Shown in pieces: positions 2,254 to 48,690 of a DNA stretch of 64,000 nucleotides. Below the pieces are notes generated by a model. The model saw nothing but the letters and a program-made list of their open reading frames with translations, had not been told where the DNA came from and did no database searches. How positions within the stretch are numbered: the first letter of the stretch is position 1; each line of letters starts with the position of its first letter. The stretch is from the NCBI RefSeq assembly GCF_048403405.1, contig NZ_CP183129.1. One strand, 5' to 3'. Position numbers and translations under genes: made by a program. The stretch is from Escherichia coli (GTDB lineage Bacteria > Pseudomonadota > Gammaproteobacteria > Enterobacterales > Enterobacteriaceae).

Positions 2254-3312
2254 TCAGGCGGTTATCGACACACTTTTAATTTGCGCGTACAGCCACAAGC
2301 CTGGTTTGATCGCCAGTTCATCCCTGGCCCACGGGCTGATACGCGCCCACAGCGTTTTACCGCCGACTTCCAGCTCCACTTCCACCTGGCCGTTGTCGTC
2401 ATAACTATTAACAACTTTTGCCCGCAATACGTTACGAATGCTGGTTTGCTGCGGCGGTTGTAAAACCAGCGAGACATCGGTAGCCTGAATGCGGATGCGT
2501 AGCGCAGCTTGCAGCGGTTCGTCCAGCTTATTGACCCACAAATGCTGATCGCCCAGCGCCAGCGCGGTCATCGCGTAATGCGGATGATGCTCAAGCACCG
2601 TCACTTTCAGAATGCTACTTTGTTGCTCTTTCGGCAGCCACGGATTCATCACGCTACTGCCCCACACTTCCTCCAGCACGCCAAAGGCTTTCACCTGACC
2701 GTTTTCCAGTACCATCACTCTGTCTGCCAGATGGAGGATCTCATCCAGCGAATGGCTGACATACAACATCGGAATGTTGATTTCCCGTGTCAGCCGTTGC
2801 AGATAAGGCAACAGTTCGCGTTTACGCGGAATATCCAGTGACGCCAGCGGTTCATCCAGCAACAGCAATTCCGGTGCTGTCAGCAAAGCCCGACCAATCG
2901 CCACGCGCTGTTTTTCGCCTCCGGACAGGCTGCCTGGTAAACGGTCAAGCAACGGTTCAATGCCTAAAAGCGCCACCAGCTTATCGAACTGATCGACCAT
3001 ACTTTTCGACATGCCGTAGCGCAGATTGCCACGCACTTTGTAATGCGGGAACAGCCGCGCATCCTGAAAAACATAGCCAACGCGACGCTTTTCTGGCGTC
3101 AGGCAGATACCTTTTTCGGCATCATTTAGTACCCGCCCATTGAGGACAATCCGCCCTTTTTGCGGGCGCGTCAGTCCACTGATGGCGTTAATCAGCGAAG
3201 TTTTTCCGGCACCGGAGACGCCAAAGATAGCAGTGATGCCATTGGCGGGCAGCGTTTCATTAATGGTCAGGCAATGGTTGCCCAACGTCTGGGAAAAATT
3301 CAGTTCCAGCAT
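2254..3312 (-). CDS. modC: Molybdate ABC transporter ATP-binding protein
   Basis: 352 aa; Walker [12 protein letters not shown] signature LSGGEKQR, C-terminal TOBE domain; synteny with modB and modA. Confidence 0.95.
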
Positions 3313-3314
3313 GA

Positions 3315-4004
3315 TTAGCGCCCCGCCCGTTCACGGCTGATTCTGGCCAGCCATTCTGAAATCAACAGGGAGATCATCGCCAGTGCAATAGAAATAATGC
3401 ACAGTCTCGCCGCGCCACTTTCCCCGCCGGGGGTCTGGATCAGGGTATACATGGCAGAAGGAATGGTTCGCGTTTCACCAGGAATGTTCGACACAAAGGT
3501 GATGGTTGCACCAAACTCACCGAGAGAACGAGCAAAAGCCAGTACCGTACCAACAATAATGCCCGGTAAGGTCAGCGGTAACGTGATAGTAAAGAAAACG
3601 CGCCAGCGCCCGGCACCCAGTGTTCTTGCGGCCTGTTCCAGTTTGATATCAACACCTTCCAGCGCCAGACGAATTGCCCGCACCATCAGCGGAAACGACA
3701 TGACGGCGGCAGCGAGAACCGCGCCGCGCCAGCTAAAGGCGAAGGTAATGCCAAACCAGTCATACAGACGTTCACCGATAAATCCGCGCCGTCCCATCGA
3801 AACTAATAATAAGTAACCGACGACCACGGGCGGTAACACCAGCGGTAGATGCAGTACGCTGTCGAGCAGAGCTTTGCCCGGAAACGTGCAACGCACCAGT
3901 AACCAGGCAAAAAAGATCCCAAACGGCAGGCTAAACAGCACAGCCAGGGAAGAAACTTTCAGGCTTAGTAAAACCGCCTGCCATTCTGGATCGGTCAGTA
4001 TCAT
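3315..4004 (-). CDS. modB: Molybdate ABC transporter permease
   Basis: 229-aa polytopic membrane ORF between modA and modC; recognised as ModB. Confidence 0.95.
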
Positions 4005-28083: not shown

Positions 28084-28537
28084 AACCAACCAAATATGTT
28101 AATTATGTATAAACCATAGATCATTGGTGATTTTATTGTTAATTTATTGTGAAATATTTATGCAACACAATTATTACAATGAAAAGGTATAGATAAAAAA
28201 CCAGTGTTTTATTTAACAGAACCGCCTTATCCACTTTTTATAATACCAATTGATTAGATTAGCCAATTTGTTGCTATTTTACATAACATATTTTTATCAA
28301 AGTTAATTGATTGTTGCGTTTATGAGCACCGGCCGTAAGCCCGTTATGTTATTGTTTCATTAGTAATAATCACTTAAATGTATCGATGAAACAGGTATGA
28401 CTTAGCGGGAGTGATTGTTTCTGAGTGAACAGAGACCACTTTCGCCTGATAAATGAAAAATGAGCGATTTTTGCAAGTTAGTTTTTCTATAGCCGAGTAC
28501 GCTCAGCGCCTCGCTTGATTACAATGAGGTTGCTGCT

Positions 28538-29482
28538 ATGAGTCCTGATAATATCAGTTCTGCTGTCAATCGCTTCTCAGGTTGGCCATCTAATGATCCT
28601 CTAAAAACAGATAAAGAATCAATGACATCACCCATGACTGTGCAGGTAATAAAGATGATTGCCGCCATCCTTGACCCACATCGGATAGTCGTTGGAATCG
28701 ATACACTTTATACAACGCAGCGCGAAACATTTACCTCAGAGAGTCAACAGCTCATTGAATCAGCATTGCAAACACTTCATGTGATGAATTTAAATAACCT
28801 GGAAACAAATCTCGATGAGGAAGGTCACTATCTGGCTTTTGGATATAACGTTGACACTCCTGACAGAATAACCGTTTCTGCTTATAATGAAAAAAAGCCT
28901 GGCTGCTATGGCCAATGTCTTTTAATACAGGATGACGAAACAGACTTATTTAACCTGATAAAAGTTAAAATTTTTGAAGCCAGGCATAATTATGTCGCTC
29001 AATTGATGAGCGATCCGGAATTTATGTTCAAATTTAGTTATAGCGCTCAACAAAATAGATTAGAACCTCATCTTCTGGTTCCCACTTATTTCCCTCTAAA
29101 AACAAACGAACCGGTTACGCAAGAGGATGTACTGTTACTTTATCGTTTCTTTAAAATGGATGGTGATTTTAATATATTAACATCAGATGAATACATGAGT
29201 ATCATGACACCTCTGATGAAGTGTGAGCGCAGCATCCACGACCACAACAGGTATGTGACGGGCAAAGATACCCTTCTTCTGGACTATCCTCCTTCTGGTA
29301 ACCAGATATATTTCCATATTTTTCCTGACGAATCAGCAACACTAGTCCTTTATTTTTCAAACAATGACATTGAATGTTTCGTCTTTGAAAGAGATATTCC
29401 GAGCCAGTATCGCTTTTTCAAAATGTTTACCAATCTGGCACTGGTTATTGATCAGTTAACCGATGCCAATCAAATACTTTAA
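28538..29482 (+). CDS. Hypothetical protein, 314 aa, no recognisable domain; in an AT-rich block
   Basis: Long ORF in a visibly AT-rich region; polar Ser/Pro/Asn-rich N-terminus (MSPDNISSAVNRFSGWPSNDP), no signal peptide or TM segment seen; plausible purine-rich RBS-like stretch upstream (aatgaggttgctgctATG). Confidence 0.6.
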   Translation: MSPDNISSAVNRFSGWPSNDPLKTDKESMTSPMTVQVIKMIAAILDPHRIVVGIDTLYTTQRETFTSESQQLIESALQTLHVMNLNNLETNLDEEGHYLAFGYNVDTPDRITVSAYNEKKPGCYGQCLLIQDDETDLFNLIKVKIFEARHNYVAQLMSDPEFMFKFSYSAQQNRLEPHLLVPTYFPLKTNEPVTQEDVLLLYRFFKMDGDFNILTSDEYMSIMTPLMKCERSIHDHNRYVTGKDTLLLDYPPSGNQIYFHIFPDESATLVLYFSNNDIECFVFERDIPSQYRFFKMFTNLALVIDQLTDANQIL

Positions 29483-29562
29483 TTTTTATATATTCCCTGT
29501 GGCAAATATTGCTAAACAATGCCCGGGGATTAATTTTTATTACTCACGGAAAGATTTAAATA

Positions 29563-29985
29563 ATGATCCCATCTCAAATCTCTTTCAACACCCTTCCTGT
29601 CAATGCAACATACGCTTCAGAGACAACAGTTGACACACAAAAATTCTCTGACATCCTCTACTCAGCGGGGTGTTCCCTAAAGGATCTGGCTTATTTGAGC
29701 AGATGTCTGGCATCAATACATCCGACTATCGCCAAAAACATTTATGAAACAGAAAATCTCAGCGATCAAAAATTACTACATATTGATTGCCGTAGTACAA
29801 ATGAAATCAAGATAAATATCTTTTTTGGTCAACAACGAGAAGGATTAATTGAAATTAGTTCTGACACAGTCATTTTTTCGATACTGTCTTCATTGATTGA
29901 CTCCACCATTTCTAAATTTCAACACCAAAACCCCGTTAACGGTTCTGTAAATCCTGACCTATTGTATGAGGATTATACTGATTAA
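29563..29985 (+). CDS. Hypothetical protein, 140 aa, acidic, no recognisable domain
   Basis: ORF 80 bp downstream of the 314-aa ORF on the same strand; by my count about 17 Asp+Glu against about 9 Lys+Arg; same AT-rich context. Confidence 0.5.
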   Translation: MIPSQISFNTLPVNATYASETTVDTQKFSDILYSAGCSLKDLAYLSRCLASIHPTIAKNIYETENLSDQKLLHIDCRSTNEIKINIFFGQQREGLIEISSDTVIFSILSSLIDSTISKFQHQNPVNGSVNPDLLYEDYTD

Positions 29986-30532
29986 ATCCCTCCTGTCGCG
30001 AAAAATGGCCTGCGTTATTGCCAGACGTAATAAAACTTTTGATTAACGTTTCTCGTACTGGTAGCACCTTCATGTACTTTTCTTTTTTACGAAAAATCAA
30101 AAGAGCTAACAAAGGTCATAATTCGCATGAATCATTAATTATTTGTTATTTTCAACATTATTTTTACATTAAGCAGAGATGAATTGCAGTGAAATTCGAC
30201 TTAACTTTTATGAAATGCATTTACTCATGGCTAAAGCCACGTCACAAAAATGCAAATTAGAAGTAGATCACAAATATCTCAATACATCAAATCAAGTTAA
30301 TTTTAAAAATTTAATATTCATGACATTAGTTGACATAACACACTGAATTATAATGAGAATTTGAAAACACACTTTAAACAATCATTTCCCGAAAGACATT
30401 TTGAAAATAGATCAATTGCAACATTACGGTCAGATAAAGACACTCCTGTGATATTAAACCTGTGCCGTTATGAACGGCCATAAATACGACGTGTGTAACT
30501 TATTTTACTCTCTGTCTTACAAAGGATTACCC

Positions 30533-30982
30533 ATGAAGAAAGCAACACTTGTGATTGGCGTTATTGGCGCGGACTGCCATGCAGTAGGCAATAAAGTTCT
30601 GGACCGCGTTTTTAGCAACCATGGCTTCAGAGTCATTAATCTGGGCGTAATGGTCAGCCAGGACGAATATATTGATGCTGCCATTGAAACTGGTGCTGAC
30701 GCGATTGTCGTCTCCTCTATCTATGGGCATGGCGATATCGATTGTCTGGGCATGCGCGAACGCTGCATTGAGCGTGGGCTGGGTAACATCCTGCTCTATG
30801 TGGGCGGTAACCTGGTGGTCGGAAAACATGACTTCGCTGACGTGGAAACCAAGTTCAAAGAGATGGGATTTGATCGCGTCTTTGCCCCAAGTCATGACTT
30901 AGAAGATGTTTGTCAGCTGATGGCCCACGATATCAACCAACGTCATGACGTTGATACTCGCATTCTTGAAGAGGCAATCTGA
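30533..30982 (+). CDS. mamA: Glutamate mutase sigma (S) subunit, B12-binding component
   Basis: Start set at [21 protein letters not shown] (good RBS aaaggattacccATG); carries the cobalamin His-ligand motif DxHxxG (DCHAVG); close resemblance to clostridial GlmS/MutS as I recall them. Confidence 0.9.
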
Positions 30983-32370
30983 TGCAAATCGTCTCTGTCG
31001 ATATTGGATCGACGTGGACCAAAGCAGCCCTCTTCGCCCGGGAGGGGGACGCGTTAACGTTGGTTAACCACGTACTGACCCCAACCACCACCCATCATCT
31101 GGCGAAGGGTTTTTTCTCCAGCCTGAACCTGGTGTTAAACGTAGATAATGCCCTCCCCCTGTTTAACAACGGTGAGGTTGCATTGAAGTATTCCTCCTCT
31201 GCCAAAGGTGGGCTGGCGGTTGCCGCAATGGGGTTGGTGCCATCTATCACCCTGGAAACCGCGAAAGTAACCGCTCACTCTGCGGGGGCTAAAATTGCGC
31301 AATATTACGCCTACAAGCTGAACCGCCGTGATATCCAGGCACTGGAAGAAACGCAGCCCGATATTCTCTTGTTCACCGGCGGCACCGACGGCGGAGAAGA
31401 AAGCTACGGCCTGAATAACGCCCGTGTGCTGGCAGAATCCAAACTCGACTGCGCCATTATTTATGCCGGAAACCGGGATATTCAGGACGAGGTGCAGGAG
31501 ATCCTAGGGCATAAAGACCTGACCATCGTCGACAACGTTCTGCCCGATCTTGACCATCCGAACCCTTTAGCTGCACGCCAGGCTATCTGCGACATATTCC
31601 TTAAACGCATCGTTAAAGGGAAAGGGCTGGATGTCATTGTTGATAAAACAGGCGAAGAACCAATGCCGACACCATGGACGGTCTTTGAACTGGTTAAGGC
31701 AATCAGTAACGTCGATCACAGCTGGAAAGAGTTCATGCTTATCGACATGGGCGGCGCAACCACCGATGTCTATTCAGCCTGTGCCAACACGCTCTCGCCC
31801 GACACCGTTTTACACGGCGTACCGGAACCCTTCGTGAAACGGACGGTGGAAGGCGATCTGGGAATGCGCGTCTCGGCAATGGTGGTTGGTGAAAGTGCGA
31901 AAGAGTTAGTCAATGTGAATTTTGCTCAGCAACCCGCACAGCTGGACGCTTTTTATCATTACCTCCGTCATCTAGTCGCTCATCCCGACTACTTACCCGC
32001 GAATGTAGAAGAAAAATATTTCGATACCGTCCTGGCCGGACTGTGTGTGGGTTATGCCACCGAAAGACATGCGGGCACCAAAAAAGAGGTCTGCACCTGC
32101 GTCGGCAATGTCGATTTACAGATGGGACGTGACCTGACAACCGTGCGTAAAGTCGTCGGATCCGGCGGATGGCTCTCGCGTGCCAGTCAGTTCGATATGC
32201 ATCACTGGTTGAAATACCGCGAGTTAAACGACGACGGTAAACGCATTCTCTTACCGACCGAATTTGAATATTACCGCGATTCCCGGGGGCTATTACCACT
32301 GCTGGCAAACGTCGCCAGAGTCGATCCGCTGGCCGCCGCGCGCACCAGTATTCAATGCTTAACCCTATAA
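30982..32370 (+). CDS. glmL: Glutamate mutase-associated L component (MutL/GlmL-like, putative reactivating chaperone)
   Basis: 462-aa ORF whose ATG overlaps the S-subunit stop (ATGA); sits between S and E as in clostridial mutS-mutL-mutE; N-terminus [18 protein letters not shown] is an ASKHA-type phosphate-1 motif. Confidence 0.75.
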   Translation: MQIVSVDIGSTWTKAALFAREGDALTLVNHVLTPTTTHHLAKGFFSSLNLVLNVDNALPLFNNGEVALKYSSSAKGGLAVAAMGLVPSITLETAKVTAHSAGAKIAQYYAYKLNRRDIQALEETQPDILLFTGGTDGGEESYGLNNARVLAESKLDCAIIYAGNRDIQDEVQEILGHKDLTIVDNVLPDLDHPNPLAARQAICDIFLKRIVKGKGLDVIVDKTGEEPMPTPWTVFELVKAISNVDHSWKEFMLIDMGGATTDVYSACANTLSPDTVLHGVPEPFVKRTVEGDLGMRVSAMVVGESAKELVNVNFAQQPAQLDAFYHYLRHLVAHPDYLPANVEEKYFDTVLAGLCVGYATERHAGTKKEVCTCVGNVDLQMGRDLTTVRKVVGSGGWLSRASQFDMHHWLKYRELNDDGKRILLPTEFEYYRDSRGLLPLLANVARVDPLAAARTSIQCLTL

Positions 32371-32388
32371 CAATTAAGGCTGCAATCA

Positions 32389-33834
32389 ATGGAACTTCGA
32401 AATAAGAAATTAACCCATGACGAATTCATGACCGAGCGGCAACAGGTACTGAAAACCTGGGAAACCGGCAAGGATGTTGAAAACTTTGAAGATGGCGTTA
32501 AATACCAACAAACCATTCCTGAGCATAAACGCTTCTCTCTTGTGCTGTTGAAAGCAGACAAGGAAGGTAAAACCCTTAGCCAACCGCGCGCAGGTGTGGC
32601 GCTGATGGACGAACACATCGAACTACTGAAAACACTACAAGAAGAGTGCGATCTGCTGCCGAGCACTATCGATGCATATACCCGTCTGAATCGGTACGAA
32701 GAAGCGGCTGTAGGGATTAAAAAATCCATCGAAGCCGGAACCTCTAAACTGAACGGTTTACCGGTCGTTAACCACGGCGTCGCAGCTTGCCGTCGCCTCA
32801 CCGAAACTTTGCAAAAACCGCTACAGATCCGCCACGGCACGCCAGATGCGCGTCTGCTGGCTGAAATCTCGATGTCCAGCGGCTTTACCAGTTATGAAGG
32901 CGGCGGCATTTCCTACAATATTCCGTATGCCAAGCGCGTAACGCTGGAAAAATCGATCCGCGACTGGCAGTACTGCGACCGTTTAATGGGGATGTATGAA
33001 GAACACGGGATCCGCATCAACCGCGAACCGTTTGGCCCACTAACGGGTACGCTGATCCCGCCGTTTATCTCGCACTCTATCGCGATAATCGAAGGCTTGC
33101 TGGCGCTGGAACAGGGTGTGAAATCTATCACCGTTGGTTATGGACAGGTCGGCAGCCTGACGCAGGATGTTGCGGCGATCCAGTCTCTGCGTGAACTTGC
33201 ACACGAATATTTTCAGAGCTATGGCTATACCGACTATGAATTAAGTACCGTGTTTCACCAGTGGATGGGCGGCTTTCCGGAAGACGAATCGAAAGCGTTC
33301 GCTATTATCTCCTGGGGCGCAGCCGTCGCGGGGATGTCTGGTGCCACCAAAGTCATCACCAAAAGTCCGCACGAAGCCTGGGGTATCCCGACTGCCGCTG
33401 CCAACATTCAGGGGCTGAAAGCCTCCCGCCAGATGCTCAACATGGTCAACGAGCAGAAATTCCCGCCGTGCCCTGCGGTTGAACTGGAAATTGAACTGAT
33501 TAAGAGCGAGGTTCGCGCGGTACTGAATAAAGTGTTCGAACTGGGTAATGGTGATATTGCGCGCGGTACGGTGCTGGCATTTGAAGCGGGCGTACTGGAT
33601 GTGCCGTTTGCGCCAGCCGCCTGCAACGCGGGCAAAATTCTTCCGGTCCGTGACAACACCGGCGCGATACGCGTACTGGAAGCCGGAGCCGTTCCATTGC
33701 CAAAAGATATTCTCGACCTCCACCACGATTACGTTGCGGAACGCGCACGCTTTGAAGGACGCCAACCGACATTCCAGATGGTTGTAGATGACATCAATGC
33801 TGTATCCCACAGTAAATTAATAGGAAGACCATAA
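32389..33834 (+). CDS. glmE: Glutamate mutase epsilon (E) catalytic subunit
   Basis: 481 aa; MELRNKKLTHDEF..., QPRAGVALMDEHIELL, LPSTIDAYTR, NGLPVVNHGV and GGGISYNIPYAK closely parallel clostridial GlmE/MutE as I recall it. Confidence 0.9.
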   Translation: MELRNKKLTHDEFMTERQQVLKTWETGKDVENFEDGVKYQQTIPEHKRFSLVLLKADKEGKTLSQPRAGVALMDEHIELLKTLQEECDLLPSTIDAYTRLNRYEEAAVGIKKSIEAGTSKLNGLPVVNHGVAACRRLTETLQKPLQIRHGTPDARLLAEISMSSGFTSYEGGGISYNIPYAKRVTLEKSIRDWQYCDRLMGMYEEHGIRINREPFGPLTGTLIPPFISHSIAIIEGLLALEQGVKSITVGYGQVGSLTQDVAAIQSLRELAHEYFQSYGYTDYELSTVFHQWMGGFPEDESKAFAIISWGAAVAGMSGATKVITKSPHEAWGIPTAAANIQGLKASRQMLNMVNEQKFPPCPAVELEIELIKSEVRAVLNKVFELGNGDIARGTVLAFEAGVLDVPFAPAACNAGKILPVRDNTGAIRVLEAGAVPLPKDILDLHHDYVAERARFEGRQPTFQMVVDDINAVSHSKLIGRP

Positions 33835-35075
33835 TGAAAATAAAACAGGCTCTGTTCACCGCTGGCTACTCCTCATTCTATTTCGATGACCAGCAGGCGA
33901 TAAAAAACGGAGCGGGTCACGACGGTTTTTTTTATACCGGGGAGCCGGTAACACAGGGGTTTAACGCCGTTCGTCAGGCCGGGGAGTGCGTATCGGTACA
34001 GTTGATTCTGGAAAACGGCGCGGTCGCCGTAGGTGACTGTGCTGCCGTACAGTATTCCGGGGCAGGTGGTCGCGATCCACTGTTCCTCGCAGAGCACTTT
34101 ATTCCGTTCCTCAACGACCATATCAAGCCATTACTGGTAGGCCGCGATGTGGATGCTTTCCTGCCGAATGCCCGTTTCTTCGACAAATTGCGTATTGACG
34201 GCAACTTGCTGCATACCGCCGTGCGCTACGGATTATCACAGGCGCTGCTTGATGCTACCGCGCTGGCAACCGGCCGTCTGAAAACTGAAGTGGTCTGTGA
34301 TGAATGGCAGTTGCCACGCGTGGCGGAATCCATTCCATTATTTGGTCAGAGCGGCGACGATCGATATATCGCCGTCGATAAGATGATCCTTAAGGGCATC
34401 GACGTGCTGCCCCATGCGCTGATTAATAACGTCGAAGAGAAGCTGGGCTTTAAAGGTGAAAAACTGCGCGAATATGTCCGCTGGCTGTCGGATCGTATTC
34501 TGAGCAAGCGCACCAGCGCACGCTACCACCCTACCCTGCACATCGATGTATACGGCACTATCGGTCTGATCTTCGATATGGATCCGCTTCGCTGTGCGCA
34601 ATACATCGCCAGCCTGGAAAAAGAAGCGCAAGGCCTGCCGCTCTACATTGAAGGGCCGGTCGATGCTGGTAACAAGCCCGATCAAATTCGCCTGCTGACC
34701 GCGATTACCAAAGAGCTGACACGCCTCGGTTCCGGCGTGAAAATTGTGGCCGATGAATGGTGTAACACCTACCAGGATATTGTTGATTTCACAGATGCCG
34801 CCAGTTGCCACATGGTGCAAATCAAAACCCCGGATCTGGGCAGTATTCACAACATCGTCGATGCGGTTCTTTACTGCAACAGCCACAGCATGGAAGCGTA
34901 CCAGGGCGGCACCTGCAATGAAACTGATGTCAGTGCCCGCACCTGTGTCCACGTCGCCCTTGCCGCTCGCCCTATGCGTATGCTGGTAAAGCCAGGGATG
35001 GGCTTTGACGAAGGCCTCGATATCGTCTTCAACGAAATGAATCGTACTATCGCGCTGTTGCAGGCTAAGGATTAA
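33834..35075 (+). CDS. mal: 3-Methylaspartate ammonia-lyase (enolase superfamily)
   Basis: 413 aa; ATG overlaps the glmE stop; DCAAVQYSGAGGRDPLF, QSGDDRY, LPHALINNVEEKLG, HMVQIKTPDLG and GGTCNET match MAL as I recall it. Confidence 0.93.
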   Translation: MKIKQALFTAGYSSFYFDDQQAIKNGAGHDGFFYTGEPVTQGFNAVRQAGECVSVQLILENGAVAVGDCAAVQYSGAGGRDPLFLAEHFIPFLNDHIKPLLVGRDVDAFLPNARFFDKLRIDGNLLHTAVRYGLSQALLDATALATGRLKTEVVCDEWQLPRVAESIPLFGQSGDDRYIAVDKMILKGIDVLPHALINNVEEKLGFKGEKLREYVRWLSDRILSKRTSARYHPTLHIDVYGTIGLIFDMDPLRCAQYIASLEKEAQGLPLYIEGPVDAGNKPDQIRLLTAITKELTRLGSGVKIVADEWCNTYQDIVDFTDAASCHMVQIKTPDLGSIHNIVDAVLYCNSHSMEAYQGGTCNETDVSARTCVHVALAARPMRMLVKPGMGFDEGLDIVFNEMNRTIALLQAKD

Positions 35076-35078
35076 CAA

Positions 35079-36449
35079 ATGGCTCGTTCTTTTAAAGTCT
35101 TATCGCCAACGGCAATCCTCGGGTATGGATTCCCGGAAGAGAGCTTCCGTAAAGCGATGGCAGAATCGCCCGATCTGATCGCCGTTGATGCAGGCTCTTC
35201 CGATCCTGGCCCCCACTACCTCGGGGCGGGCAAACCGTTTACCGATCGCGCAGGGGTCAAGCGCGATCTGCGCTATATGATCACCGCAGGCGTGCAAAAT
35301 AATATACCGGTGGTGATCGGAACGGCTGGCGGTTCTGGTGCCGCACCACACCTGGAGTGGTGCCGAGAAATAATTCATGAGATTGCCCAGGAAGAGCACC
35401 TCTCGTTCTCAATGGCGCTGATCCCGGCAGACGTTGACAAAGCCATCGTCCACCAGGCGCTGGATAACGGCAAAATCACGGCGCTGGAGTTTGTCCCGCC
35501 GTTAACCCACGACGCGATTGACGAAAGTACGTATATCGTTGCGCAAATGGGCATCGAACCCTTCCAGCGGGCGCTGAAAGAAGGCGCGCAAGTGGTGCTG
35601 GGCGGGCGCGCTTACGACCCGGCCTGCTTTGCTGCGCTTCCGATCATGCAAGGCTTTGATGAAGGTCTGGCGCTGCATTGTGGGAAAATCCTTGAATGCG
35701 CGGCAATCGCCGCAACGCCCGGCTCAGGCTCTGACTGTGCGATGGGCATCATTGATGACAACGGCTTTACGCTGAAGACATTTAATCCGAAGCGTAAATT
35801 TACCGAAACGTCAGCGGCTGCACACACACTGTATGAGAAATCCGATCCCTACTTCCTGCCTGGACCTGGCGGCGTGTTGAACCTGAAAGGCTGCACATTT
35901 AAAGCGGTCAATGACAGCGAAGTGTACGTCAGCGGTTCTAAGCATGAAGAAACGCCGTATGCCCTGAAACTGGAAGGTGCGCGACGAGTGGGCTTCCGCT
36001 GTCTGACCATCGCAGGAACGCGCGACCCGATCATGATCGCCGGGATCGATAAAATCATCGATGAAGTCAAAACCAGCGTTTCGCGTAACCTGTCGCTCGA
36101 CGATGACAGCATTCGCATCAATTTCCACCTGTACGGCAAAAACGGGGTGATGGGAGACCATGAACCGATGCAAACTGCCGGGCATGAGCTGGGGATTGTC
36201 CTTGATGTAGTTGCACCGACCCAGGAAATTGCCAACAGCGTTTGCTCGCTGGTGCGCTCTACCATGCTGCACTACGGCTATGAAAACCGCATCGCTACCG
36301 CAGGTAATCTGGCGTTCCCGTTCTCCCCTTCTGATATCCAGGGCGGGCCGGTATACGAATTTTCCATATATCACCTGATTGAAGCCAACGACGCTCTGCG
36401 TTTTGATTTCCATATTGAACAGGTGACGCCAGAAGGAGTTCAGGCATGA
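35079..36449 (+). CDS. Uncharacterised protein, probably DUF1446 / AtuA-like family
   Basis: 456-aa ORF starting 4 nt after the MAL stop; family assignment is from memory of AtuA-like N-terminal features and is not verified. Confidence 0.5.
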   Translation: MARSFKVLSPTAILGYGFPEESFRKAMAESPDLIAVDAGSSDPGPHYLGAGKPFTDRAGVKRDLRYMITAGVQNNIPVVIGTAGGSGAAPHLEWCREIIHEIAQEEHLSFSMALIPADVDKAIVHQALDNGKITALEFVPPLTHDAIDESTYIVAQMGIEPFQRALKEGAQVVLGGRAYDPACFAALPIMQGFDEGLALHCGKILECAAIAATPGSGSDCAMGIIDDNGFTLKTFNPKRKFTETSAAAHTLYEKSDPYFLPGPGGVLNLKGCTFKAVNDSEVYVSGSKHEETPYALKLEGARRVGFRCLTIAGTRDPIMIAGIDKIIDEVKTSVSRNLSLDDDSIRINFHLYGKNGVMGDHEPMQTAGHELGIVLDVVAPTQEIANSVCSLVRSTMLHYGYENRIATAGNLAFPFSPSDIQGGPVYEFSIYHLIEANDALRFDFHIEQVTPEGVQA

Positions 36450-36763
36450 AACAGTCAATTGTCTCACTGGCGCAAGTCATTCGTTCGAAAAATGCCGGAC
36501 CTTACGAACTGGTTTTAGATATTTTATTTAAAACCAAAGAAAACTATGAGCGTGTCAAATCATCAGGGCAATTAACCCCAGAACTGATCGCGCGCTTATA
36601 TCATGTTGAACCTGACTTTATTCATCGTATTGTCTGGTTTGATCCTTCTAACGCAGTAAAAATCGTCATGCCACGAGATATTATCTCCGGGAATGTAGGT
36701 GACAATGATGTCTATGGTGCACAGCAACATGCACCTTTATTAAATATGAGTTTCGATTTGTAA
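36446..36763 (+). CDS. Small uncharacterised protein, possibly DUF4387, coupled to the upstream ORF
   Basis: 105-aa ORF whose ATG overlaps the upstream stop (ATGA); family name is a tentative recollection. Confidence 0.45.
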   Translation: MKQSIVSLAQVIRSKNAGPYELVLDILFKTKENYERVKSSGQLTPELIARLYHVEPDFIHRIVWFDPSNAVKIVMPRDIISGNVGDNDVYGAQQHAPLLNMSFDL

Positions 36764-36846
36764 AAATCCGAATACTTTTAGCCAACTGACATCCCGTCAC
36801 TTATTGCAGTTCAACACTTCAGCTATTTGTAAGGTTGTAATAGCAG

Positions 36847-36878
36847 GTAGATGCCTGAATCTCTATTCGGGCATCTAC
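36847..36878 (+). terminator. Intra-operon stem-loop (possible partial terminator or attenuator)
   Basis: 9-bp perfect stem gtagatgcc / ggcatctac with a 14-nt loop, followed by a U-rich but interrupted tract (ttctcctgattctgattt); lies between the small coupled ORF and the transporter. Confidence 0.4.
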
Positions 36879-36923
36879 TTCTCCTGATTCTGATTTATCG
36901 CCGTGCACCTGATGGAGGAAAAA

Positions 36924-38204
36924 ATGAAGAAAATAAGTTTAACCACGATGATTCTTTTGGCGCTGGTACTTGGAATGATTATCGGCGTAGTGCTCAATAA
37001 CACTGCTTCACCGGAAACCGAAAAACTCTATGCGCAAGAAATATCGATATTCACGACGATTTTCTTACGACTGATAAAAATGATTATCGCTCCGTTAGTG
37101 GTCTCTACCCTGGTGGTAGGTATAGCTAAAATGGGCGATGCCAAAGCCCTTGGTCGTATTTTTTCTAAAACACTCTTTTTATTTATTTGCGCCTCATTGC
37201 TGTCAATTGCCTTAGGCTTGATAACAGTAAATTTCTTCATGCCAGGCACAGGAATTAATTTTGTTGCACACGGAGCCGAAACCACCGGAGTGGTCGCGTC
37301 AGAACCCTTTACGCTAAAAGTATTTATTTCGCATGCTTTCCCCACCAGCATTGTCGATGCCATGGCGCACAATGAAATTTTGCAAATCGTGGTGTTCTCA
37401 ATTTTCCTCGGCTGTAGCCTGACGGCGATTGGCGAGAAAGGCAGCGCCATCGTTCACGCCTTAGATTCGCTGGCACATGCCATGTTAAAGCTCACTGGCT
37501 ACGTCATGCTCTTCGCTCCCCTGACCGTATTCGCTGCTATTTCAGCATTGATTGCTGAACGAGGACTGGCAGTTATGGTGAGCGCCGGGATCTTTATGGG
37601 TGAATTTTATTTCACCATGTTATTACTTTGGGTGCTGCTTATCGGTCTGGCCATCGTTTATGTTGGCCCCTGCATCAGACGCCTGACCCGCGCCCTTTCG
37701 GAACCCGCCCTGCTGGCATTTACCACATCCAGTTCTGAAGCGGCTTTTCCGGGAACGCTTGAAAAACTGGAGCAATTTGGCGTTTCCCCCAAAATTGCCA
37801 GCTTTGTCTTACCCATTGGCTACTCATTTAATCTTGTTGGATCAATGGCCTACTGCTCCTTCGCCACAGTTTTCATCGCCCAGGCCTGCAATATCCATTT
37901 ATCCATCGGTGAGCAAATCACCATGCTGTTGATCCTGATGTTGACCTCGAAAGGAATGGCTGGCGTACCACGCGCCTCAATGGTGGTTATCGCCGCCACG
38001 CTCAACCAGTTCAATATTCCGGAAGCGGGGCTGATCTTGCTGATGGGCGTTGATCCGTTCCTTGATATGGGGCGTTCCGCGACAAACGTCATGAGCAACG
38101 CAATGGGCGCTGCGATGGTGAGTCGGTGGGAAGGCGAACATTTCGGCGAGGGTTGTCGGGGTAAAGCATTAAAACCCAATGAATCGAACGTTGCTCTGCC
38201 CTGA
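36924..38204 (+). CDS. Dicarboxylate/amino acid:cation symporter (DAACS family; GltP/DctA-like)
   Basis: Start at MKKISLTTMILL with RBS ggagg 5 nt upstream; about 426-aa polytopic protein; LRLIKMIIAPLV and surrounding TM pattern typical of DctA/GltP family carriers. Confidence 0.8.
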   Translation: MKKISLTTMILLALVLGMIIGVVLNNTASPETEKLYAQEISIFTTIFLRLIKMIIAPLVVSTLVVGIAKMGDAKALGRIFSKTLFLFICASLLSIALGLITVNFFMPGTGINFVAHGAETTGVVASEPFTLKVFISHAFPTSIVDAMAHNEILQIVVFSIFLGCSLTAIGEKGSAIVHALDSLAHAMLKLTGYVMLFAPLTVFAAISALIAERGLAVMVSAGIFMGEFYFTMLLLWVLLIGLAIVYVGPCIRRLTRALSEPALLAFTTSSSEAAFPGTLEKLEQFGVSPKIASFVLPIGYSFNLVGSMAYCSFATVFIAQACNIHLSIGEQITMLLILMLTSKGMAGVPRASMVVIAATLNQFNIPEAGLILLMGVDPFLDMGRSATNVMSNAMGAAMVSRWEGEHFGEGCRGKALKPNESNVALP

Positions 38205-38311
38205 GGGGGATCTTAAGCAATCAGAAGCCAATGACTACGCATTTTTATAAGCCGGATCATGAAGTTAGACGGCAATTAAGTAAAACTAACGTTTAAGGTG
38301 AAAAGTGAAAT

Positions 38312-39964
38312 ATGTCCAAACCATTTATCTGGCAAGAACCGTTTCTACAAAATAAAGACGGTACAGAATATACATTAATTAGCGATCAACATATTACAGT
38401 AACGGAATTAGACGGCGAAGAAGTAATAAAAATCGCTCCTGAAGCATTAACGCTGCTTGCCCGGCAGGCATTTTATGAAGCCTCTTTTTTCTTACGTTCC
38501 GCTCATTTGCAACAGGTCGCCAGCATTCTTAACGATCCGCAGGCCAGTAGTAATGATAAATACGTTGCGTTGCAGTTATTACGTAATGCTGAAGTCTCAG
38601 CAAAAGGGGTATTACCCAACTGTCAGGATACCGGCACCGCAACTATTGTTGCCAGTAAAGGGCAACAGATATGGACGGGAGGTAACGACGCTGAAGCCTT
38701 AAGCAAAGGCATTTACAGTACTTTCCAGGAAAATAACCTGCGCTTTTCACAAAATGCGCCGCTGGATATGTACACCGAAGTCAATACGCAAACCAATCTC
38801 CCGGCGCAGATTGATATCAGCGCTGTCGCTGGTGATGAGTACCATTTTCTCTGTATTAATAAAGGGGGCGGCTCTGCCAATAAAGCCGCGCTTTATCAGG
38901 AAACCAAATCCTTATTGCAACCAGAAAAACTGACCGCATTTTTAATCGAAAAAATGAAATCGCTGGGCACCGCTGCCTGCCCGCCTTACCACATCGCCTT
39001 TGTCGTCGGAGGGCTTTCAGCCGATCAAACCTTAAAAGTTGCCAAGCTGGCCTCAACGAAATATTACGACAATTTGCCCACCAGCGGAAACGAGCAAGGA
39101 CAAGCATTCCGTGATATTGAGCTGGAAAAAGTATTGCTCGAGGCCAGTCAGCAATTTGGTATTGGTGCGCAATTTGGAGGTAAATATTTCGCTCATGATA
39201 TTCGCGTCATTCGTCTGCCGCGTCACGGTGGCTCCTGCCCGATAGCTATGGCGCTCTCCTGTTCTGCCGATCGCAATATCAAAGCAAAAATTAACAAGCA
39301 CGGTATCTGGCTGGAAAAACTCGAACACAATCCGGGGCAATATATTCCAGCCTCACTGCGGGAAGAAAATCACGCGCAACATGTACAACTGGATCTAAAC
39401 CGTCCGTTGCGTGACGTGATGCAGGATCTCGCCAGATTACCGGTAGGCACCCGCGTGTCGTTAAGTGGTCCCATCGTAGTGGCACGCGATATCGCCCACG
39501 CCAAAATAAAAGCGCGGCTGGATAACGCCGAACCGATGCCGGATTACCTGAAGCATCATATTGTCTATTACGCTGGCCCGGCGAAAACACCGGAGAACAT
39601 GGCCTGCGGTTCACTGGGTCCAACCACGGGCGGTCGAATGGACGGTTATGTCGATACCTTCCAGGCGGCTGGCGGCAGTCTGGTGATGTTATCGAAAGGT
39701 AACCGCAGCCAGCAGGTCACCGATGCCTGTCACAAACATGGTGGCTTCAATCTGGGTAGTATTGGCGGTGCAGCTGCGTTACTGGCGCAAGAATATGTCA
39801 AAAGTCTGCGTTGCCTGGAATACCCGGAGCTGGGTATGGAAGCGGTGTGGATGATGGAAGTGGAAAATCTGCCCGCATTCATCCTGGTAGATGATAAAGG
39901 CAATAATTTCTTTAGTCAGTTTGAGCAGCAACACCGCTGCGCCAGTTGCCCTGCGGGACATTAA
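38312..39964 (+). CDS. fumD: Class I fumarate hydratase-type hydratase, probable mesaconase (FumD-like)
   Basis: 550 aa, same size class as FumA/FumB; N-terminal [22 protein letters not shown]... and [10 protein letters not shown] ([4Fe-4S] hydro-lyase signature region) recognised. Confidence 0.85.
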
Positions 39965-39973
39965 GGAAAATGA

Positions 39974-40576
39974 ATGGAAGCGCGAATTTCAACTGAACGG
40001 CATGTGCAGCGCCAGCAGAAATTGAAGGAACAGGTCGATACGCGCGTCGCGGCGGCGATAGAGAAAAAAGGGATTTTGATTGTTTTCACCGGCAATGGCA
40101 AAGGGAAATCCACTGCCGCGTTTGGTACTGTGACGCGCGCGGTGGGTCATGGCAAAACGGTGGGGGTTGCGCAGTACATCAAGGGGCAATGGGACAACGG
40201 CGAATACAACCTTCTCCAGCCGCTGGGGGTTGAGTTTCATATTATGGGAACCGGTTTTACCTGGGAGACACAGAACCGGCAAGCGGATATCGACGCGGCG
40301 AAAGAGGTCTGGTCGGAAAGCAAACGGATGCTGGCTGACAAGCGTTACGACTTAGTGGTGCTTGATGAGCTGACCTATATGCTGGCTTACCATTATCTGG
40401 ACACCGAAGAAGTGATCGCTTCTCTGCAAAACCGCCCGGCACAACAAAGTGTCATTGTCACCGGACGCGGTTGCCACAGTCAGATATTAAAAATGGCGGA
40501 TACGGTCAGCGAAATCCGCCCCGTCAAACATGCTTTTGATAACGGCATTCAGGCGCAGCCGGGTATCGACTGGTAA
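39974..40576 (+). CDS. Cob(I)yrinic acid a,c-diamide / cob(I)alamin adenosyltransferase (CobA/BtuR family)
   Basis: 200 aa; P-loop GNGKGKST; near-colinear with E. coli BtuR as I recall it (IIVFTGNGKGKTTAAFG...GFTWETQNR...VVLDELTYM...VKHAFD). Confidence 0.88.
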   Translation: MEARISTERHVQRQQKLKEQVDTRVAAAIEKKGILIVFTGNGKGKSTAAFGTVTRAVGHGKTVGVAQYIKGQWDNGEYNLLQPLGVEFHIMGTGFTWETQNRQADIDAAKEVWSESKRMLADKRYDLVVLDELTYMLAYHYLDTEEVIASLQNRPAQQSVIVTGRGCHSQILKMADTVSEIRPVKHAFDNGIQAQPGIDW

Positions 40577-40579
40577 TAA

Positions 40580-40606
40580 CTGCGCCTGGCATCCCGCCAG
40601 GCGCAG
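40580..40606. terminator. Bidirectional terminator between the adenosyltransferase gene and the convergent LysR gene
   Basis: Perfect 11-bp inverted repeat ctgcgcctggc / gccaggcgcag with a 5-nt loop, flanked by A/T; abuts both stop codons. Confidence 0.7.
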
Positions 40607-40609
40607 GTT

Positions 40610-41515
40610 TTACATCTCCTGCGGTACGACCGATTTCGCCAGCAACCATTCACGAAATTGCTGCAAGTGCGGCGAGTCAGACTTCTCTTCCTGCCACGTC
40701 ATAATAAAACGATTACCGGTACGAATAGGCACATCACAGGGAATCACCATATCGCCACTATCCAAATCATGTTGAATAGCGAACCGTGGTAACAGCGCCA
40801 CGCCGAGATTAGAGCGCACGGCGGCAATCAGCATTGAAAGCAAATCGAAACGTGGTCCGTTATTGACCAGCGGACTGCTAACGCCAGATAAAGCAAACCA
40901 CTCTTCCCAGCCAGTAATACGGGTGCTTTGATGCAGAAGTGGTAACTCAGTAAGCAGTTCTGCCACTGACAGTTTTTGATCGGACATTGCAAGCAAACTG
41001 CCGCTGCATACCGGCAAAATCTCCTCATCAAAGAGATATTCTACTTCCGCCCAGGGCGCGCAAAAATTTTCGCGCATAATGACAGCATCGTACTCCCGAT
41101 TAAGAAAATCGCCGTTATTAGCTAAAGAATGAATATTAACAATAATATCGGGATGTAACTTTGTGAATTCATGTAAATTTGGGATTAACCAGTGGGTACT
41201 AAAAGTAGGATTAACGGCAAGTTCAATAACCTGAACCGTAGGCTGCCAGGTCATAATGGTATTGGTATCGCGTTCCAGCTTATTTAATGTTTCTTTTACT
41301 ATCCCCAGGTAATACTTCCCTGCATCATTAAGAAAAATACGTTTTTTAGAGTGTGAAAATAACGGAGTATGTAAAAATTCCTCCAGCGCACTCACTTGTC
41401 TGAATACAGCACTTTGGGTTAACGCTAACTCCTCTGCCGCTCTGGTATAACTTTCATGACGTGCGACGACCTCAAAAGTCACCAGCAGCTCCGTTTTAGG
41501 TATTTTTCCTCGCAT
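40610..41515 (-). CDS. LysR-type transcriptional regulator
   Basis: 301 aa; N-terminal HTH (ESYTRAAEELALTQSAVFRQVSALEE) and LysR substrate-binding domain. Confidence 0.88.
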   Translation of the reverse strand: MRGKIPKTELLVTFEVVARHESYTRAAEELALTQSAVFRQVSALEEFLHTPLFSHSKKRIFLNDAGKYYLGIVKETLNKLERDTNTIMTWQPTVQVIELAVNPTFSTHWLIPNLHEFTKLHPDIIVNIHSLANNGDFLNREYDAVIMRENFCAPWAEVEYLFDEEILPVCSGSLLAMSDQKLSVAELLTELPLLHQSTRITGWEEWFALSGVSSPLVNNGPRFDLLSMLIAAVRSNLGVALLPRFAIQHDLDSGDMVIPCDVPIRTGNRFIMTWQEEKSDSPHLQQFREWLLAKSVVPQEM

Positions 41516-41554
41516 AATGCCGTCCCTTAAAAATAGTTTAAACCATCAAAAATA

Positions 41555-41576
41555 CATTACTTATTACGAAGTAATG
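41555..41576 (-). promoter_or_regulatory. Dyad-symmetric site upstream of the LysR gene (candidate autoregulatory operator)
   Basis: Perfect inverted repeat cattactt-attacg-aagtaatg centred about 50 bp upstream of the LysR start codon, in AT-rich DNA. Confidence 0.4.
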
Positions 41577-42080
41577 GTAACCAAAGCAGCAATAAATAAT
41601 TTATAAGAATCATGATTGACATTTATAACCCAGTAAGCCTGGCGTGACAAATATCTTAATCAGATAATAATAATCCGAAAAGCACAGCGCCTTTCGAATT
41701 ATCCGGAATCACATTAAGTGAAAATTATTAAATTGATATCATTTATCATATCTGTGGATATTATGATAAACAATCAACAAAGATTTTATTTTTGATTTAT
41801 AGCATATCCCTCTAAGAATTTTTGCGATGCTGCAATATCCGGGTAAAGACCCGATCCTGGCTGACAAATGGCACGACTTGACGATAAGCGGTGAACATCG
41901 CTTTTGTTGATTTACTTAACGCTACGGTCAAACGCTGGGAAGCCAGTGCATCAGGTAACGATTCGAAATTCGCCGTCGTTCTTATTCGTGGCTTGCGGTC
42001 GGTTGCGGCAATCCACAGTGGCTGTGGTCATGCAGTCAAGCCAGCGGTCAGATTTCGACCGTGGTTAACATTTAAGGCAT

Positions 42081-42179
42081 AAAAAAGGCCATCATACGAT
42101 GGCCAACCATGTCGAAACCGACAGCCCTTCGCCATTCCTGTAGAGGGAAGCGGCGAGGGCTATTTCTTATTACAGATAT
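42081..42179 (-). ncRNA. sdhX: Probable SdhX (RybD)-type sRNA from the sucD 3' UTR, with intrinsic terminator
   Basis: Directly downstream of the sucD stop; ends in hairpin ggccatcgtatgatggcc followed by a T run (read on the minus strand); K-12 has an sRNA at this position; the 5' boundary is undefined because it is a processing product. Confidence 0.55.
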
Positions 42180-43049
42180 TTATTTCAGAACAGTTTTCAG
42201 TGCTTCACCGATATCCGCCAGGCTGCGAACGGTTTTCACGCCTGCGGCTTCCAGAGCAGCGAATTTCTCATCCGCAGTCCCTTTTCCACCGGCAATGATC
42301 GCACCCGCGTGGCCCATACGTTTGCCTTTCGGCGCAGTCACACCAGCGATGTAACCCACAACAGGCTTGGTAACGTGCTCTTTGATGTACGCAGCCGCTT
42401 CTTCTTCAGCGCTACCGCCGATCTCACCGATCATCACGATCGCTTCGGTCTGCGGATCTTTTTCGAACATTTCGAGGATGTCGATAAAGTTAGAGCCAGG
42501 GATCGGGTCGCCGCCGATACCAACACAGGTCGACTGACCGAAACCGTAATCCGTGGTCTGTTTCACCGCTTCATAGGTCAGTGTACCGGAACGGGAAACG
42601 ATACCCACTTTACCCGGTTTGTGAATGTGACCAGGCTGGATACCGATTTTGCATTCACCCGGAGTGATAACGCCTGGGCAGTTCGGGCCGATCATGCGAA
42701 CGCCCGCTTCATCCAGTTTCACCTTCACGGTCAGCATATCCAGCGTCGGGATGCCTTCAGTGATGGTGATAATCAGTTTGATGCCTGCATCAATAGCTTC
42801 CAGAATGGAGTCTTTGCAGAACGGTGCTGGTACGTAGATAACAGAAGCGGTAGCGCCAGTAGCAGCAACAGCTTCACGCACGGTGTTGAACACCGGCAGG
42901 CCGAGGTGGGTGGTGCCGCCTTTACCTGGGGTTACGCCGCCAACCATTTTAGTGCCGTATGCAATGGCCTGTTCTGAGTGGAAAGTCCCCTGGCTACCGG
43001 TAAAGCCCTGGCAGATAACCTTGGTGTTTTTATCAATTAAAATGGACAT
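42180..43049 (-). CDS. sucD: Succinyl-CoA synthetase alpha subunit
   Basis: 289 aa, [24 protein letters not shown]...; recognised as SucD. Confidence 0.97.
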
Positions 43050-44215
43050 TATTTCCCCTCCACTGCGGCAACAACCTGCTGAGCTGCATCCGTCAGACCT
43101 TTTGCTGCAATAATATTCAGGCCGCTGTCAGCCAGTTTCTTCGCGCCGAGTTCGGCGTTGTTACCTTCCAGACGTACCACGACCGGTACGTTAACACCCA
43201 CTTCCGCTACCGCGCCGATGATACCGTCAGCGATCAGGTCGCAACGAACGATACCGCCGAAGATGTTAACCAGAACGGCTTTCACTTTGTCGTCAGAGAG
43301 GATGATTTTGAACGCTTCGGTTACACGTTCTTTGGTTGCGCCGCCGCCAACGTCAAGGAAGTTAGCTGGTTCGCCGCCGTGCAGTTTAACGATGTCCATC
43401 GTACCCATCGCCAGACCTGCGCCGTTAACCATACAACCGATGTTACCGTCCAGCGCAACGTAGTTCAGTTCCCACTGTGCAGCCTGTGCTTCACGTGGAT
43501 CTTCCTGCGACTGGTCACGCATTTCGCGCAGATCAGGCTGGCGGAACAGTGCGTTGCCATCAGCGCCCAGTTTGCCGTCGAGGCAAATCAGATCGCCCTG
43601 TTTGGTGATGACCAGCGGGTTGATTTCGATCAGCGCCAGGTCGCGCTCCAGGAAAATGGTCGCCAGGCCCATGAAGATTTTGGTGAACTGCTGAACCAGT
43701 TTACCTTCCAGACCCAGTTTGAACGCCAGCTCGCGTCCCTGATACGGCATCGGGCCAGTCAGCGGATCAAGCGCAACTTTGTGGATCAGGTGCGGAGTTT
43801 CTTCCGCCACTTTTTCGATTTCCACGCCGCCTTCGGTGGAGGCCATAAAGACCACACGACGGGAACTACGGTCAACAACGGCACCGAGATACAGCTCTTT
43901 AGCGATATCGGTCGCTGCTTCAACCAGAATCTGGTTAACCGGTTGGCCATTGGCATCTGTTTGATACGTTACCAGACGCTTGCCCAGCCAGTTTTCTGCA
44001 AAAGCACGGATGTCTTCTTTGCTGTTTACAACTTTCACACCGCCCGCTTTACCGCGGCCACCAGCGTGAACCTGACATTTCACTACCCACGGACCGGCAC
44101 CGATTTTTGAAGCGGCTTCTTCTGCTTCGCGCGGAGTAGTACAGGCATAACCCACCGGTGCTGGTAAGCCATAGCGGGCAAAAAGTTGTTTTGCCTGATA
44201 TTCATGTAAGTTCAT
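43049..44215 (-). CDS. sucC: Succinyl-CoA synthetase beta subunit
   Basis: 388 aa, [18 protein letters not shown]...; 1-nt overlap with sucD. Confidence 0.97.
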
Positions 44216-44255: not shown

Positions 44256-44286
44256 GTAGACCGACACCCTATCCACGTCGGTCTAC
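44256..44286 (-). other. Intercistronic stem-loop in the sucB-sucC spacer
   Basis: Perfect 10-bp inverted repeat gtagaccgac / gtcggtctac with an 11-nt loop, inside the 93-bp sucB-sucC spacer. Confidence 0.5.
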
Positions 44287-48503: not shown

Positions 48504-48690
48504 CCTGCATTTCTTTTGTAGGCCGGATAAGGCATTCACGCCGCATCCGGCGCTGTTTGCCTGATGCGACGCTTGCGCGTCTTATCAGGCCTACGATTTC
48601 TGCATTTCTTTTGTAGGCCGGATAAGGCGTTCACGCCGCATCCGGCACTGGTTGCCTGATGCGACGCTTGTGCGTCTTATCAGGCCTGGG
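48504..48690. repeat. Two tandem BIME-type units (paired REP palindromes) in the sdhB-sucA spacer
   Basis: About 93-bp unit ...tttgtaggccggataaggcRttcacgccgcatccggcRctgKttgcctgatgcgacgcttgYgcgtcttatcaggcc... occurs twice in direct tandem with 4 substitutions; each unit holds two inverted REP sequences. Confidence 0.8.

Follow-up and report, generated by a model that had tools for sequence, protein, structure and literature searches.

SdhX (RybD) is an Hfq-dependent sRNA that comes from the 3'UTR of sdhCDAB-sucABCD (Miyakoshi et al. 2019, PMC6393394). That paper defines the SdhX seed (UUCGACAUGGU), the G62 numbering, and a 38-nt form, reports that the core CGACAU pairs with the first codons of ackA, and cites complementary work on E. 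coli from the Gottesman group. SdhX is released by RNase E cleavage at the 3' end of sdhCDAB-sucABCD mRNA and, together with Hfq, represses ackA; katG and fdoG are further targets in E. coli. A glutamate-fermentation cluster with FumD, CobA, and an LTTR has been described in E. coli O157:H7 (Kronen & Berg 2015, PMC4682846); in its account of the metabolic genes, the LysR–sucD spacer and hut–rtcB remnants go unmentioned. An intact module of histidine-utilisation-like (hut-like) genes plus rtcB is present, by RefSeq annotation, in E. coli WP2-W18-ESBL-08, 2016C-3878, and 2020CK-00188.

The locus analysed here lies in a 64,000-nucleotide stretch of E. coli DNA (contig NZ_CP183129.1), which we call the window. 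As far as the metabolic genes covered by PMC4682846 go, the window carries the O157:H7 cluster, with glmS, glmL, glmE, mal, DUF1446/AtuA, gltP-like, fumD, cobO, and LysR genes. According to the annotation of a 100%-identical locus (L001), the entire sucD–cydA variable region, at about 28374-42079, is this methylaspartate/mesaconate glutamate-fermentation island. The island holds two hypotheticals and a DUF4387 gene besides the genes just named, the gltP-like one being a symporter; on the cydA side, core homology ends near 28373. At the sucD side, a 664-bp spacer (41516-42179) is flanked by two minus-strand genes. One is the LysR-family regulator of the island (40610..41515), an ORF with the Pfam domains HTH_1 and LysR_substrate. 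The other is sucD, for the succinyl-CoA ligase alpha subunit (42180..43049, stop codon 42180-42182), an ORF that is also annotated in L001 and is 97.8% identical to K-12 sucD, with every difference synonymous. The spacer occurs at 98-100% identity in 835 of the 5,426 complete E. coli genomes, O157:H7 included, whose spacer is 98.8% identical to that of the window. We consider it very probable that this spacer is composed of an intact SdhX, a non-functional hut–rtcB deletion scar, and an AT-rich LysR upstream spacer.

The full 99-nt form of SdhX occupies 42081..42179 on the minus strand, directly after the sucD stop codon. In a minus-strand alignment with K-12 and three other arrangements of the locus, the window did not differ from K-12 at any position between the sucD stop codon and the last base of the U-run, over 99 nt. 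The identical part includes the E. coli-specific segment that pairs with katG, the G62 (counted after the stop codon, numbering of PMC6393394) at which the equivalent of the 38-nt SdhX2 form starts (42118→42081), the seed with its CGACAU core (42116→42106), read from the sequence just 5' of the terminator, and the U6 terminator itself. The Rho-independent terminator, which serves both sdhCDAB-sucABCD and SdhX, lies at 42081..42104 on the minus strand, with the stem-loop at 42104..42087 and the U6 tail at 42086..42081. The terminator scan gave the hairpin GGCCATCGTATGATGGCC followed by TTTTTT, with a 7-bp stem, five GC pairs, and a 4-nt loop. The first-pass annotation of this DNA had reported a hairpin with a U-run retained after sucD, had read it as part of an SdhX/RybD-like 3'UTR sRNA, and had proposed a comparison with K-12. 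The hairpin and U-run were found at 42104..42081, and the comparison gave 100% identity over the 3'UTR, U-run included, with the published seed and terminator in place.

Folding of the 102-nt sucD 3'UTR region resulted in -42.1 kcal/mol (z = -5.0 vs shuffles). The SdhX segment was matched in 5,425 of the 5,426 complete E. coli genomes, and its terminator was invariant in five of five aligned arrangements. SdhX is on the same strand as sucD, directly after the stop, and requires no intervening promoter. Rfam 15, run on 40500-43200 at E ≤ 1, returned no match, SdhX included; a K-12-identical sequence would equally give none, so this null result says nothing against SdhX, and Rfam 15 evidently holds no sensitive SdhX model. 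Judged by its sequence, the RNA in the window is the already known, characterised sRNA in unaltered form, and its expression, RNase E processing, Hfq binding, and repression of ackA may be presumed for the window strain. A natural variant was seen in E. coli S87 (L005, 8001-8099), with a 7-nt deletion (GAATGGC) and three substitutions; the deletion falls in the upstream E. coli-specific part, and the seed and terminator stem are kept.

Beyond SdhX, about 260 bp had been singled out as not AT-rich, and the GC content bore this out, with 0.475-0.49 across 41800-42199 against 0.275-0.34 across 41500-41899. The step at about 41800 coincides with the stop codon of a HAL gene remnant (41786-41788) and thus marks the edge between intergenic and former coding DNA. 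In WP2-W18-ESBL-08 (L003), the gene order is LysR–HAL/PAL/TAL ammonia-lyase–hutG–hutI–hutD–permease–hutU–rtcB-family–sucD, and a word-7 blastn of 41400-42300 against this locus resolved four collinear pieces. The first (41400-41922; L003 1760-2283, 89%) comprises the LysR 5' end, the LysR–HAL spacer, and the last 137 nt of HAL. Its HAL part, at 41786..41922 on the minus strand, is the C-terminal remnant (aa 511-556 plus the stop; blastn and tblastn). The second (41917..41978, minus strand; L003 2626-2687, 87%) is an interior remnant of the same hutH-like gene (Pfam Lyase_aromatic), aa 378-397. A 3-nt filler, TTC, occupies 41979..41981 at the HAL–rtcB deletion junction. The third piece, at 41982..42046 on the plus strand, is an interior remnant of rtcB (about aa 376-397), and its positions 41982-42038 are 91-93% identical to 11769-11825 of L003 and 13233-13289 of L006 (E. 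coli GMF065). The fourth (42041-42300; L003 12001-12261, 98%) comprises the last 42 nt of rtcB, SdhX, and sucD. In it, 42041..42082 on the plus strand holds the last 13 codons of rtcB and the shared TAA at 42080-42082 (aa 453-465 of a 465-aa protein), with which the interior rtcB piece is out of frame. This end is about 95-98% identical in DNA to intact rtcB ends (97.7% vs L003 from 12001), and its stop codon overlaps the SdhX U-run on the opposite strand.

By tblastn, HAL aa 511-538 were placed at 41925-41842 (82%), aa 539-557 at 41842-41786 (100%), and aa 378-397 at 41976-41917 (90% over 20 aa), whereas RtcB aa 376-398 fell at 41983-42051 (78%) and aa 451-466 at 42035-42082 (87.5%). In DNA, the two HAL pieces (41786-41922 and 41917-41978) are 86-87% identical to the L003 HAL gene, and the tail is about 97% identical to that of 2020CK-00188 (L016). 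The intact genes encode genuine family members, with 412.7 bits for Lyase_aromatic (PF00221, the domain starting at residue 34) and 319.2 bits for RtcB (PF01139). About 66 of the 556 HAL codons are left, with a frameshift at about 41841 and no intact catalytic-domain frame, and about 35 of the 465 rtcB codons are left in two different frames, neither intact; the leftover ORFs of the scar gave no Pfam match. These matches identify the normal-GC 260 bp as broken leftovers of a HAL/hutH-like gene and rtcB. The remnant DNA is an ordinary pseudogene or deletion scar beside a known sRNA, and nothing in it points to a new kind of element. Two features of the intact L003 module were also recorded: its HAL (2146-3816) begins with a hydrophobic stretch resembling a signal peptide (MKGLIRRVTVTVVLWSVCSIAMAKS), which would be unusual in a cytoplasmic histidine ammonia-lyase, and an rtcB RNA-ligase paralogue adjoins its hut cluster.

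The first-pass annotation had taken the 260 bp for residual sequence at a rearrangement breakpoint. This held in so far as the DNA is remnant coding sequence; the proposed identity did not hold. Under that proposal, the island would have replaced mngRAB and left the segment behind as a piece of the K-12-type neighbour (mngR or the sucD–mngR spacer). In K-12, mngR is indeed convergent with sucD, and its stop codon lies 6 nt from the SdhX U-run. However, K-12 DNA similarity ends at 42073-42079 by megablast and word-7 blastn, with none to the left of 42073-42077, and the comparison of 41820-42180 with the K-12 sucD–mngR spacer gave no similarity for 41820-42072. The K-12 MngR protein, run by tblastn against 41500-42200 in six frames, reached a best E of 1.2, and every stretch is explained by HAL or rtcB instead. 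The only possible mngR-side vestige is TAAGGCA at 42073..42079, compared with TAAGCAC in K-12 (the mngR stop and the following nt); at most these 7 nt may be mngR-side sequence. An mngR origin of 41820-42072 was therefore refuted at the DNA and protein levels, and we give the proposal as a whole next to no chance of being correct.

The view of mngRAB as a displaced locus also fails on gene content. In E. coli GMF065 (L006, 10614-20083), the order is island–LysR–rtcB–mngB–mngA–mngR–sucD. Since the island and mngRAB occur together in this strain, they are not alternatives, and mngRAB was not simply displaced. Three ends were compared: that of rtcB in L006 (GTTTAAGGGGTAA), that of mngR in K-12 (CGATAAGCACAAAAAAGG), and the one shared by L003 and the window (GTTTAAGGCATAAAAAAGG). 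The comparison suggests a deletion at a TAAG microhomology as the cause of the mngBAR loss; such a deletion would have fused the rtcB end to the few bases past the mngR stop. The GMF065 locus also differs upstream of LysR, where its match to the window stops at 41533, 18 nt before the ATG, and gives way to an unrelated spacer of 463 bp, so that at least two unrelated versions of the LysR promoter region exist.

The junction had been said to abut the sRNA, and the variable region does start right past the SdhX terminator. K-12 (mngR), HH45 (TPR-repeat gene), WP2-W18-ESBL-08 (rtcB), and the window diverge 1-7 nt past the U-run, at 42073-42079. The arrangements were counted with about 300-400 bp abutting the SdhX terminator per type, and together they account for essentially all 5,426 genomes. 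The mngR tail adjoins the terminator in 3,884 genomes, the scar spacer in 835, the TPR gene tail in 547, and the full hut–rtcB module in 144, plus a few disrupted copies. These four arrangements (mngR, TPR gene, rtcB, and scar) join the conserved core at most 7 nt from the U-run in 5,425 genomes. One disrupted neighbourhood was seen in E. coli DSM 101139 (L007, 1-9000), where a Mu-like transposable prophage with Mor, Gam, gp16, a transposase-like integrase, and ExeA/MuB-like genes sits inside hutD and truncates the hut cluster beside rtcB–sucD. The K-12 sucB–sucC spacer (L002, 8192-8386) carries about 195 bp of extra DNA that is absent at 44265-44278 of the window. It resembles window 48517-48687 (75-82%) and is probably a REP/BIME-type repeat.

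Relative to L003, the scar is separated from the intact module by four deletions, which amount to about 9.6 kb of the ~10.2-kb module, with direct repeats of 6-7 nt at two junctions. The deletion inside HAL is 348 bp long and in frame, between CTAAYGC direct repeats (microhomology). The deletion from HAL to rtcB, of 9,081 bp replaced by the 3 nt TTC, removed hutG, hutI, hutD, the permease gene, hutU, and most of HAL and rtcB. Two deletions lie inside rtcB, one of 13 bp and one of 160 bp between CCAGCG direct repeats. We infer that the direction was deletion from an intact ancestor and that the mechanism was microhomology-mediated. Accounting for all pieces, the proposed course is as follows. 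The scar would derive from a ~10-kb histidine-utilisation-like plus rtcB module that sits between LysR and sucD in other E. coli. An earlier TAAG-mediated loss of mngBAR would have brought the rtcB stop up to the SdhX terminator, and the AT-rich LysR upstream spacer would once have lain between LysR and the HAL gene. Deletions of 348 bp, 9,081 bp, 13 bp, and 160 bp would have left two HAL fragments on the minus strand and two rtcB fragments on the plus strand, ordered and oriented as in the original module, with a later 1-nt frameshift in the sub-lineage of the window.

This frameshift is a 1-nt deletion, GGGG→GGG at about 41841, that shifts the frame of the HAL tail. M11957 and O157:H7 SS52 have GGGG, and the exact 3-G version was found in only 72 genomes, compared with 737 with four G. 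In most genomes with the scar, the fused HAL fragments still form an open frame of 84 aa, sometimes called by PGAP as the 'hypothetical protein' WP_001309348.1. The frame could have stayed open through the chance of the 348-bp deletion being in frame, or through something else. On the plus strand, the 63-aa ORF mentioned in the first-pass annotation is present at 41891..42082 with a GTG start. It is a chimeric frame across the scar, in which only the last 13 codons and the stop are in the rtcB frame and the remainder is antisense HAL and out-of-frame rtcB. With this chimeric frame and no Pfam match to any domain, it was rejected as a gene. A plus-strand terminator-like site (41886-41903) and two sites resembling promoters were put down to chance, their counts being equal or nearly equal to the shuffle expectation.

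The E. whittamii Sa2BVA5 locus (L012, 4100-5071) carries an independent LysR–sucD scar of the hut–rtcB module with different breakpoints, which retains the final 312 nt of HAL, 134 nt of hutU, and the final ~115 nt of rtcB. The module was thus lost more than once in the genus. These data also bear on whether the segment is functional and kept by selection, as a small protein (84-aa or 63-aa) or as a cis element or sRNA that aids SdhX termination or LysR regulation. The 98-100% conservation of the scar in 835 genomes from diverse hosts, the in-frame 348-bp deletion with PGAP calling the 84-aa protein in some strains, and the last 42 nt of rtcB being kept wherever rtcB adjoins SdhX all speak for such a role. 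However, the 84-aa ORF is frameshifted in the window and 71 other genomes, and the conservation is not above that of the flanking genes of the same genomes. The segment gave no Pfam domain, no Rfam match, and no promoter-like site pointing into it beyond chance. E. whittamii keeps different pieces, and in the K-12 and TPR arrangements, which have no scar DNA, SdhX is still identical. We consider a selected function highly improbable and retain the reading as a non-functional deletion scar; more speculatively, the 84-aa HAL-fragment fusion may be an expressed micro-protein.

The junction-bearing segment 41917-42040 is at least 99% identical in 826 genomes, which points to a single origin of the deletion architecture. 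In sequence, the scar is far more divergent than its flanks. Between the window and L003, LysR differs by 0.66%, cobO by 0.33%, and sucD by 1.15%, with third codon positions of the flanking genes differing by 1-3.4%, whereas 41516-42040 differs by 9-13%. Across the LysR–HAL spacer and HAL tail, identity of the window was 86.5% with L003 and 87.7% with E. whittamii, compared with 94.3% between those two, so that the window is the outgroup to L003 plus E. whittamii. The LysR gene shows the opposite topology, with 99.3% identity within E. coli and 86% to E. whittamii. Plain neutral decay was rejected as the cause of the 9-13% divergence; the flanks differ by only 0.3-1.2%, and for the left part of the scar there is an intact allele with 97% identity. 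A deep second haplotype fits better.

The allele in question is that of 2020CK-00188, whose intact module is 96.9% identical to window 41400-41922. In sliding windows across the hut–rtcB module, its identity to L003 alternates between blocks of ~100% and of 84-92%, a pattern that marks this module as a mosaic of two deep haplotypes made by recombination. Based on these comparisons, we conclude that two deep hut–rtcB haplotypes exist and that the scar came from the second, presumably with its interior pieces included. Among the 5,426 complete E. coli genomes, a search for an intact module fully of this second type (type B) yielded none that covers the interior fragments, with top matches of 87% for HAL and 93% for rtcB. 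Identity of the interior HAL and rtcB fragments to intact E. coli genes thus reached only 87-93%, and the exact ancestor allele was not found. The deletion-scar reading needs the deep second haplotype as an extra assumption, given the 9-13% divergence of the scar against 0.3-1.2% in the flanks, and the mosaic in 2020CK-00188 supports that assumption.

The same divergence could mean that the scar was already degraded on arrival, having come in along with the methylaspartate island or been acquired from another Escherichia lineage by recombination. The opposite patterns of scar and LysR identities to L003 and E. whittamii, the sharp shifts in divergence at the LysR start codon and at 42041, and the mosaic haplotypes in 2020CK-00188 are consistent with such an import. 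Nevertheless, E. coli itself has an intact module that is partly type B, and a GTDB species-level scan with the HAL protein gave only six loci and no donor species. An import would alter only the place of the deletions and not the identity of the DNA. We regard an import as possible, though on the doubtful side, and keep the hut–rtcB deletion scar as the preferred reading. A broader claim, that the SdhX terminator is a hard boundary and possibly a hotspot of structural variation and that the scar is the main surviving trace of a second, ~13%-diverged hut–rtcB haplotype formerly segregating in Escherichia, has in our judgement a slim chance of being right.

The remaining part of the spacer, 41516..41785, is an AT-rich LysR–HAL intergenic segment (GC 0.275-0.34) that is collinear in strains with the intact hut module, namely with L003 1876-2145 (86.7%) and L016 (about 97%). 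It presumably contains the promoter/operator region of the LysR-type regulator. Two perfect dyads were noted in it, CATTACTT-N6-AAGTAATG at 41555-41576, 40-61 nt upstream of the LysR ATG, and TTTATCATA-N11-TATGATAAA at 41742-41770, in the AT-rich LysR upstream spacer. Both are candidate LysR-type (T-N11-A-like) operators, and their conservation in L003 is imperfect.

For annotation, the sucD–LysR spacer of the O157:H7 type should be labelled as sdhX plus hutH-like and rtcB pseudogene fragments, and not as a 'hypothetical protein'. The sucD–cydA interval can be seen as a modular variable region (island, hut, rtcB, mngBAR, and TPR gene) trimmed per lineage, in which the methylaspartate island did not simply replace mngRAB and SdhX is kept nucleotide-identical regardless of the DNA past its terminator. 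The scar is a handy lineage marker, with 835 of 5,426 genomes carrying it and 72 the extra frameshift. The sharp terminator-defined boundary and the divergent haplotype preserved only as a scar are mildly notable and carry little general biological weight.

Compared with the described systems, the SdhX of the window shows no difference from that of K-12 in the RNA itself, and only the DNA past the U-run differs. The first base there is A in the window and G in K-12, followed by rtcB-derived sequence in the former and mngR in the latter. Compared with the intact hut-like plus rtcB module, the scar has the same LysR–sucD site, gene order, orientation, and overlap of the rtcB stop with the U-run, whereas about 9.6 kb of the ~10.2 kb is absent and no gene is whole. 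Unlike ordinary scars, it consists of pieces of a divergent haplotype without a fully intact copy in 5,426 complete genomes. In its collinear fragments, direct repeats, G-run frameshift, and independent loss in a sister species, it resembles the ordinary scars of illegitimate recombination, and both SdhX and the gene-decay scar beside it are of already known kinds.
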